The notes beneath the pieces were generated by a model. The model ran no database searches. It was not told the origin of the DNA and saw only the letters and a list, made by a program, of their open reading frames with translations. From the IMG/VR virus record IMGVR_UViG_2778261067_000009: 40,848 bases of DNA. One strand, written 5' to 3'. The position numbers and the translations under genes were made by a program. Below, one piece after another: positions 30,754-31,339 of this stretch (its first letter is position 1; each line of letters opens with the position of its first letter). Source of the DNA: a virus. Lineage: Duplodnaviria > Heunggongvirae > Uroviricota > Caudoviricetes.

Positions 30754-30933
30754 TTACTCTGGTTCTTTGGCCTTGCGCCGCTGGCGATATTCAACTTCTC
30801 GTTTTAATGCTGCAGTAACAAATTGCCCCGTACTTTCGCCAGGCATTTTTACCGCCTCAACATTGTTCATAACTTCATGCGGAACCCTTGCCGCAACGGT
30901 TTGTGATTTTGCGTTTACTGCTTTTGTCGCCAT
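30754..30933 (-). CDS. Small ribbon-helix-helix-like DNA-binding protein (59 aa), candidate island repressor
   Basis: MATKAVNAKSQTVAARVPHEVMNNVEAVKMPGESTGQFVTAALKREVEYRQRRKAKEPE; beta-strand then two-helix pattern typical of Arc/MetJ/CopG RHH; GAGGGG RBS; divergent from the operator/promoter region; below the 60 aa cut-off of the supplied ORF track. Confidence 0.45.
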   Translation of the reverse strand: MATKAVNAKSQTVAARVPHEVMNNVEAVKMPGESTGQFVTAALKREVEYRQRRKAKEPE

Positions 30934-30983
30934 GTGGTGTACCCCTCATAAAAAACAAATGCAGTATGCAGGAAAAAAAACAA

Positions 30984-31035
30984 GTGTTCAACACTTGACG
31001 TGTTTAACACCTGGGTTTAAATTGGTGTTCAACAC
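30984..31035. promoter_or_regulatory. Operator/promoter region: three copies of the 11 bp palindrome GTGTT(C/T)AACAC overlapping a TTGACG -35 and TTTAAAT -10 candidate
   Basis: Palindromes at 30984-30994, 31000-31010, 31025-31035; lies between the divergent RHH gene and the icd-like operon. Confidence 0.5.
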
Positions 31036-31132
31036 CTTGTTGGCGCAAGGTGCAGAAACGACGAAACCCGGCAGTGCGCTAACACTAACCGGGCTTCTAA
31101 CCACCAACGATAGCGAAAGTATCGAGGTAGCT

Positions 31133-31339
31133 ATGAGAAATCATACCACACACCCGCAAGGGCGGGACTCGCACAACCTGAATAAATACATCTGGCGTTT
31201 TATCGCCCTGAGCACGGCACAACCGCGCGTGATTACCATTGAGGCCACCAGCGAACAGGAAGCACGCCAGCAATCTCCGGCTGGCTGCGTGATGGTATTC
31301 GCTGCCCGTATTCGTCAGGAGGTGTGCCATGTGCAATAA
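31133..31339 (+). CDS. Icd-like (host cell division inhibitor-like) small protein
   Basis: 68 aa; ...KYIWRFIALSTAQPRVITIEATSEQEARQQSPAGCVMVFAARIRQE... resembles the Icd-like proteins of P4-type integrative elements as recalled; GAGGT RBS. Confidence 0.5.
   Translation: MRNHTTHPQGRDSHNLNKYIWRFIALSTAQPRVITIEATSEQEARQQSPAGCVMVFAARIRQEVCHVQ

Follow-up and report, generated by a model that had tools for sequence, protein, structure and literature searches.

Do Gram-negative phage-inducible chromosomal islands (PICIs) possess a global repressor? The authors of the study of the EcCICFT073 island called the matter unclear (PMC6092414), and it is raised again by a 586-bp region (positions 30754-31339) of the viral DNA IMGVR_UViG_2778261067_000009 (Caudoviricetes), whose full 40,848 nucleotides (nt) are referred to here as the window. 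Judged by its sequence, the island in this window is a PICI of the EcCICFT073 type – a phage satellite of about 11 kb from Escherichia coli O26 – and not a P4-type element. A first, sequence-only reading of the region had pictured a small ribbon-helix-helix (RHH) regulator, encoded divergently from a promoter that is overlapped by three palindromes and drives an icd-like gene. We consider it probable (roughly 0.7) that the region is a regulatory switch of the island, in which an RHH repressor would act on three operators (O1-O3) and an antisense RNA related to SymR on the icd-like gene. This view is carried by observations on the anatomy of the region, the joint change of its sites and its protein, the exchange of a cassette, and the conserved structure, strand and promoter of the RNA.

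The proposed repressor gene and its palindromes

The two divergent genes and the elements between them are as follows; the operators are putative.

30754-30933, minus strand: gene for a YlcI/YnfO-family protein of 59 amino acids (aa) with an RHH-like fold, the proposed repressor
30963-30991, minus strand: proposed leftward promoter of the RHH gene, read from the sequence; -35 TTGAAC (30991-30986), 17-nt spacer, -10 CATACT (30968-30963)
30984-30994, no strand: operator O1, GTGTTCAACAC; overlaps the leftward -35 and abuts the rightward -35
30995-31023, plus strand: rightward promoter, TTGACG (30995-31000), 17-nt spacer, TAAATT (31018-31023); 9/12 in a promoter scan
31000-31010, no strand: operator O2, GTGTTTAACAC; starts at the last base of the rightward -35 and occupies the rightward spacer
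31025-31035, no strand: operator O3, GTGTTCAACAC; just past the rightward -10, over the expected transcription start
31033-31052, plus strand: hairpin CACCUUGU...GCAAGGUG at the 5' end of the rightward transcript (-12.2 kcal/mol, z -2.8)
31133-31339, plus strand: icd-like gene, 68 aa, first of the rightward operon; Shine-Dalgarno (SD) sequence GAGG at 31124-31127

The three palindromes of the first reading are exact copies of GTGTTYAACAC, beginning at 30984, 31000 and 31025; its promoter is likewise confirmed, the TTTAAAT that it gave being the same spot shifted by one base from TAAATT. A scan of both strands of the window with at most one mismatch gave seven matches to the palindrome, a number reached by none of 100 shuffled sequences (mean 1.27, maximum 4). 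A near-operator one mismatch away from the consensus, GTGTTAAGCAC, lies at the GTG start of alpA (30065-30075); it is probably a coincidence, since it also occurs in CFT073, whose RHH specificity differs. The leftward promoter, whose -35 falls within O1, scores 8/12, under the threshold of the scan; its -10 is kept as TATACT or CATACT at the same place in nearly all related loci, and the RHH gene has an SD sequence, GAGGGG, at 30948-30943.

The minus-strand gene of the first reading is indeed present, and RefSeq annotates it likewise in E. coli O26:H11 strain 11368. Its product belongs to the YlcI/YnfO family (NCBIfam NF041551; E 2e-16, 59.7 bits where the cutoff is 30, over all 42 positions of the model). 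The RHH-like label that had been given to it stands as far as fold and motif are concerned, whereas a match to a curated RHH sequence family or to a solved structure was not obtained: there was no RHH match in Pfam, a sequence profile search of the PDB came back empty, and Foldseek gave E values above 7. The AlphaFold2 model, built from 31 homologs (predicted local distance difference test score, pLDDT, 78.7), has the strand-helix-helix arrangement of RHH proteins, and the turn and strand pattern agree with it, G32-E33-S34 before helix 2 being invariant. Sub-threshold matches to the PSK_trans_fac and CB_ParB_C families are a weak hint only. In hhalign, the protein aligns in register with CopG and Arc (P about 0.01), and the register of Arc places positions 12, 14 and 16 on the DNA-facing side of the strand. 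Among the homologs R16 is invariant, positions 12 and 14 are the most variable of the whole protein, and 13, 15 and 17 are hydrophobic or small. As modelled, then, this is a YlcI/YnfO protein with an RHH-like fold that stands outside the curated RHH sequence families.

Relatives of the region were collected in a scan of one genome per species, which yielded 31 loci, and EcCICFT073 and the islands of E. coli O157:H7 and ATCC 25922 were added. About 30 loci, from Escherichia, Edwardsiella, Pectobacterium, Kosakonia, Serratia, Xenorhabdus, Proteus and Klebsiella, share a fixed layout. Rightward from the start codon of the repressor gene there follow a site over the minus-strand -10 (TATACT), an A-rich stretch, TTGAC(G/A), a site, a -10 and another site, and then a hairpin, a G+C-rich hairpin, CTAACCACAAC, a small hairpin containing the SD sequence, and ATG. 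The positions of the sites relative to the -35, the -10 and the start site are constant in these loci, and the site sequence follows protein residues 10-16. Ten or more specificity classes can be told apart, among them these (strand residues 10-16, then site):

QT[VLI]AAR: GTGTTCAACAC
Q[SA]LK[SA]R: GTGGGCCACAC
[KR]KLEAR: GTGGCTGACAC
QK[VL]Q[AT]R: GTGGAGTCCAC
QKMSAR: CTGGGTGCCAG
QKIQAR: CTGGAATCCAG
KRFDVR: GTGTCCGACAC
AKKNIRF: TGTGCGCACA

The outer triplet of the site tracks the N-terminal arm of the protein, MATK or MATG going with GTG...CAC and MTRD or MSDN with CTG...CAG. Of 11 bases, the sites at the O2 and O3 positions of one locus share 10.05 on average, and sites from different classes 6.89. 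Every locus has its class-specific version of the site at the O2 position, and the rightward -35, TTGAC(G/A), is conserved across loci; the extra site O1 is limited to the QT[VLI]AAR class (the window and loci L002-L004). Other loci have an equivalent 5' hairpin of different sequence, CCTTGAG...CTCAAGG.

More distant YlcI/YnfO proteins occupy the same position with sites of their own, in ATCC 25922 (L037, 2100-2405; site about GTGTAAG..AC), where the protein has 101 aa and a C-terminal extension, and in O157:H7 (L036, 2160-2357; site TGTGCGCACA). The namesake of the family, YlcI of the K-12 prophage DLP12 (L039, 3252-3446), is encoded divergently from nohD in a context unlike that of the islands; from our own reading of the sequence, we take the adjoining DNA to be the prophage cos site, and by eye no comparable array of sites was seen beside this cos site and nohD. 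Upstream of the RHH gene, L013 and L022 (Xenorhabdus) have natural deletions between operator copies – in L013 one site has been fused to the -35, in L022 the whole promoter region has been lost – which look like recombination between the repeated sites.

Comparison of the window with EcCICFT073 (L034, 6445-6810) supplies the sharpest instance, in the form of an exchanged cassette.

30726-31090, no strand: exchangeable specificity cassette; contains the RHH gene with the operators and both promoters, and also two hairpins, the 5' one of the rightward transcript and the 3' one of the antisense RNA

As judged by eye from the alignment, the two islands are identical up to about 30725 and again from about 31091 onward, and far more diverged over the approximately 365 bp in between. 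The RHH gene is the only complete gene in this cassette, and the sites switch from GTGTTCAACAC in the window to GTGGGCCACAC in EcCICFT073. The argument for pairing rests on the concerted identity of the repeated sites and on this swap; together they amount to strong comparative evidence that the RHH protein and the palindromes are a cognate repressor-operator pair. The core of the first reading – an RHH-type regulator with operators overlapping the promoter of a divergent icd-like operon – is thereby strongly supported by the fixed positions, the concerted change and the cassette swap.

The icd-like gene and the strands opposite

The first gene of the rightward operon had been likened to the Icd-like division inhibitors of P4-type elements. 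Its icd-like nature is borne out by a match to NCBIfam NF033153 (69.8 bits against a cutoff of 25, E 1.5e-19), and RefSeq annotates it in the same way in strain 11368. The attribution to P4-type elements is not, the relation being instead to Icd of phage P1, with 35% identity over 43 aa (BLASTP, E 4e-6). Inhibition of cell division by the product is a matter of annotation only, and in PHROGs the family goes under the name 'transcriptional repressor'. When deposited phages were searched with the protein by tblastn, a single record, of 16.5 kb, was found. The stop of the icd-like gene overlaps the start of the next open reading frame (ORF) at 31329, and the later ORFs abut or overlap one another up to the RepA helicase.

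31329-33721, plus strand: rest of the operon; a 154-aa ORF, a 77-aa ORF, a DUF4222 protein and a RepA-family helicase (AAA_25, E 2.4e-43)

The sequence-only reading made no mention of two features opposite the genes just described: a SymR-like RNA and a plus-strand frame free of stops. The parts of the former are predicted to be these:

31052-31132, minus strand: SymR-like cis-antisense RNA of about 73-80 nt with two hairpins, complementary to the icd-like leader and SD sequence
31140-31148, minus strand: promoter of the antisense RNA, extended -10 TGgTATGAT, within codons 3-6 of the icd-like gene

A permissive Rfam scan gave one match, to SymR (RF01809) at 31132-31060 on the minus strand (33.3 bits, E 0.004). 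The symE leader of K-12 aligns with the icd-like leader from the G+C-rich hairpin through about the eighth codon (L035, 2250-2500, against window positions 31052-31160). In 24 aligned minus-strand sequences, K-12 symR included, the pattern T-A-n-n-n-T is invariant at one place, and an A 7 nt downstream of it coincides with the annotated 5' end of SymR. The codons over this -10 hexamer encode amino acids that vary among loci, and its three invariant bases are kept. In the window the hexamer is TATGAT (31145-31140) with a TG upstream, so that the antisense RNA should start at 31132.

The consensus structure has 26 pairs, with 95.2% of cells paired and compensatory changes in 18 pairs; none of 500 shuffles reached this, and controls slid along the alignment were 29-51% paired. 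The same pairs are satisfied at 95.2% on the minus strand, where 105 are G-U, against 78.9% on the plus strand, where four are, and this better pairing indicates that the structure belongs to the antisense transcript. In the window itself, the minus strand folds at -35.1 kcal/mol (z -4.55) and the plus strand at -20.5 kcal/mol (z -1.99), the former taking the two-hairpin shape of SymR. Built on 23 island sequences, with symR left out, a covariance model scores 80.2 bits on the window and finds K-12 symR (E 7e-5), beginning at its annotated 5' end; it has no match in the immI region of P1, and the Rfam C4 model likewise has none in positions 28000-40848 of the window. The RNA thus has the marks of SymR: it is cis-antisense to the translation start of its target, its promoter lies within the first codons, and its covarying two-hairpin structure is on the antisense strand. 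We conclude that a relative of SymR is probably encoded opposite the icd-like translation start, as a predicted RNA, and the comparison suggests that the chromosomal symE/SymR locus and the island leader may share an origin.

The second feature is a reading frame that runs through the whole region on the plus strand.

30311-31339, plus strand: long ORF, 342 aa, antisense through the whole RHH gene and the operators, with the same in-frame end as the icd-like gene

It begins 58 nt past alpA, and in compact loci the frame opens 16-50 nt past that gene. Its CFT073 equivalent has 428 aa and was originally named c1487 (L034, 5767-7053), and the 342- and 428-aa forms are annotated as Icd-like in many genomes. 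Opposite the RHH gene, the long frame has no stop in any of 27 loci, against 0-6 stops in the other frames (zero in only one locus); across the A+T-rich intergenic region, it is free of stops in 21/27 loci, against 1-12 stops in the other frames. The icd-like ATG is in the long frame in 19 of the 27. The wobble positions of the two strands coincide, and a stop in the long frame requires a codon ending in T before a CAx codon of the RHH gene. Among the 135 codons that precede CAx in 27 distinct RHH genes, the third base is A in 53, G in 57, C in 25 and T in none, T making up 19.8% of all third positions; 27.9 stops in the long frame would be expected and none is observed. The nominal P of 3e-14 is too small since the sequences are related, though the avoidance is clear. 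Pfam and NCBIfam detect no domain in the long product except the C-terminal Icd-like one, and a guess that its N-terminal part might be an antirepressor of the AntA/Bro type was dropped for want of any domain in these databases. In our reading, selection has kept the frame open for the sake of translation across this stretch and not of a folded linker. The annotation of c1487 over the module is why the latter stayed hidden in EcCICFT073. Being the third ORF of that island by our own reading of the gene order, c1487 is likely the 'ORF3' of the 2018 EcCICFT073 study, in which an 'ORF3' reporter fusion was AlpA-dependent (PMC6092414).

How the proposed switch would work

If the region is a switch built of repressor and RNA, a dimer of the RHH type formed by the 59-aa protein would bind the 11-bp sites O1-O3, a binding to which the class-specific repeated sites lend indirect support. 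Because O2 fills the rightward spacer, O3 covers the start site and O1 covers the repressor's own -35, the bound protein would both keep down its own synthesis and shut the rightward operon, from icd-like through the three small ORFs to the RepA helicase and beyond. A SymR-like RNA of about 75 nt, made constitutively from 31132, would pair with the icd-like leader and SD sequence and stop the translation of leaky transcripts; given the overlapping stops and starts of the operon, it would block the downstream genes too. We further infer a link of the switch to AlpA and to induction of the island.

Several points weigh against this account. The published regulator of induction is an activator, AlpA, the helper phage-induced master regulator of EcCICFT073-type islands (PMC6092414), and since overexpression of AlpA by itself triggers EcCICFT073 replication (PMC6092414), repression by the RHH protein must be bypassable. 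At 33.3 bits, the SymR match falls short of the Rfam gathering score of 61. The site found over the repressor's -10 in other classes is degenerate in the window. Finally, gene and sites are adjacent, so that some co-variation is expected from linkage alone – although linkage alone is insufficient, because the repeated sites stay mutually identical while the neighbouring promoter hexamers stay constant.

A more far-reaching version, conceivable but to our minds doubtful, holds that a nested, three-layer switch is the missing master repressor of Gram-negative PICIs and explains the action of AlpA through read-through. In the off state, the RHH protein would block the rightward promoter and the SymR-like RNA the translation of icd-like. 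Once a helper phage activates alpA, AlpA-driven transcription, with ribosomes aboard, would cross the long ORF antisense to the RHH gene, a frame that would be kept stop-free so that the transcript escapes termination. This traffic would silence the RHH gene by convergent transcription, sweep the operators and deliver the icd-like and replication genes.

The same parts might instead be governors of copy number or expression, tuning the replication operon of an already active island rather than acting as its master lock. The controlled operon does carry a RepA helicase and SSB; plasmid copy control classically combines a small repressor and an antisense RNA lying over the first translation start, as in CopG with RNA II (pMV158) or CopB with CopA (R1); and AlpA alone is enough for EcCICFT073 induction. 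However, the many exchangeable specificity classes resemble a diversification of the immunity type, and the operators lie over both promoters, as in phage switches; we regard governors of this kind as improbable. There is still less to recommend the RHH protein as a type II antitoxin whose palindromes are purely autoregulatory. Across about 25 loci the RHH gene is usually solitary and no conserved gene follows it on the same strand, which argues against a toxin-antitoxin pair and led us to reject that reading, and two of the three sites are on the divergent rightward promoter rather than on that of the RHH gene. We give equally little credence to the long ORF as the sole real gene of the region, with the 59-aa ORF and the 'operators' as its by-products. 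Its frame is under selection to stay open and its annotation is in use in many genomes; but the YlcI/YnfO family also occurs outside this context (for example next to the presumed cos site of DLP12), the 59-aa model folds like an RHH protein, and coding for a linker without domains does not explain repeated identical sites at fixed promoter positions. Moreover, both frames can be coding, as their wobble positions are shared.

The island and its counterparts

The window sequence is 99.9% identical to that of E. coli O26:H11 and related strains, and its island, integrated at roxA/phoQ, is allelic to EcCICFT073 of strain CFT073 and matches it in gene order. From roxA to phoQ, RefSeq lists in strain 11368 an integrase, an AlpA-type helix-turn-helix protein, the YlcI/YnfO protein (minus strand), the Icd-like protein, three small ORFs, DUF4222, RepA helicase, SSB, PerC, major capsid protein, head decoration protein and small terminase (TerS). 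The island thus has what defines a Gram-negative PICI: int, alpA and a replication module, a size of about 10-15 kb, no lysis or tail genes, and a specific att site. A P4-type element was rejected on the grounds that Rfam gave no C4/CI-type RNA and that RefSeq lists RepA helicase, capsid, decoration protein and TerS instead; the Rfam scan for C4 and isrK gave nothing in 28000-40848 at E values up to 1, and no search was aimed at P4 sid, psu, delta or the alpha primase.

30065-30253, plus strand: alpA (Pfam Phage_AlpA, E 1.5e-16; RefSeq coordinates), upstream of and co-oriented with the long ORF

The window and EcCICFT073 AlpA proteins are identical at 59/62 residues. The two islands share the integration site, the gene order, the module (a YlcI/YnfO and Icd-like pair with newly assigned locus tags) and both flanks of the cassette; they differ in the cassette, which in EcCICFT073 is QALKAR with GTGGGCCACAC, in the primase that stands there in place of the RepA helicase, and in the gene at the TerS position. 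Of 5426 complete E. coli genomes, 1492 have a match to at least part of the 586-bp region, and in 473 the match extends over 80% or more.

Some neighbouring genes may be mentioned in passing. Downstream of the RHH gene on the same strand lies a basic 62-aa ORF (30523-30711, minus strand) that matches phrog_21027, of unknown function; CFT073 has an identical copy, annotated there in a shorter form as a hypothetical protein of 57 aa, and the ORF is not conserved in other genera. As in EcCICFT073, a major capsid and a head decoration protein, which we presume to be lambda-like, are encoded within 35672-38249. The gene annotated as small terminase lies at 37707-38249, where CFT073 has a different hypothetical gene. 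The island also encodes a PerC-family regulator (34591-34863, plus strand); PerC relatives of other PICIs have been reported to influence expression of the locus of enterocyte effacement (LEE) (PMC11773190).

Devices of this kind are known from elsewhere. The immI region of phage P22 has divergent RHH repressors, Mnt and Arc, the promoter Pant and the antisense RNA sar. It shares with the window a small RHH repressor encoded divergently from an operator-overlapped promoter and a short cis-antisense RNA over the ribosome-binding site of the downstream gene. The window protein, however, has no detectable sequence relationship to Mnt or Arc beyond the register; an antirepressor is controlled in P22, but icd-like and satellite replication genes here; and the RNA is sar there and SymR-related here, with a repressor gene that is nested antisense in an open frame. 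Closer in its RNA is symE/SymR of K-12, with a homologous leader, SD hairpin, first eight or so codons, antisense -10 and two-hairpin RNA, which in both cases starts within a few bases of the start codon of the target. There the target is SymE, of the AbrB fold, under a LexA box, whereas here it is Icd-like under RHH operators, and the Rfam score of the RNA is below the family threshold; as the start codon of the window type lies 6 nt further downstream than that of symE, the RNA covers the SD sequence and not the AUG. In the immI region of P1 (c4 RNA, icd, ant), too, an operon opens with a translationally coupled ORF for an Icd homolog, and a small antisense RNA is directed at the translation start of this ORF; C4, by contrast, has its gene on the same strand, further upstream, and works through short target sites. 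In Gram-positive PICIs (the Staphylococcus aureus pathogenicity islands, SaPIs), the gene of the master repressor Stl/Rpr is also placed between the integration module and the replication operon, divergent from the latter (PMC6092414), but the proposed window repressor is of another fold and size (a 59-aa RHH protein), int and alpA here point the same way as the operon, and AlpA acts as an activator.

For this zone, a 2023 survey of Gram-negative PICIs names no more than RNAs of the C4/isrK type and Bro-network genes, and in our literature searches, whose coverage is incomplete and no proof of absence, neither this RHH module nor SymR relatives in satellites were found described. Such a device is of a known kind; what appears to be new is an unrecognised switch in a studied island family, its many exchangeable specificities, and its nesting in an open antisense frame. 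Being widespread satellites, PICIs mobilise genes for virulence and defence, and for the PICIs of Gram-negative bacteria the module offers a candidate repressor with its operators, together with a natural set of specificity swaps. Through it, the uncharacterised YlcI/YnfO family may gain a function, and SymR new relatives and a possible origin; it is also a clear example of a frame that is kept free of stops although it runs antisense to a functional gene. Should the three-layer switch prove true, the exchangeable RHH-operator cassettes would define at least ten mutually immune types of island, and symE/SymR in the chromosome would have arisen by domestication of a copy of the island leader.

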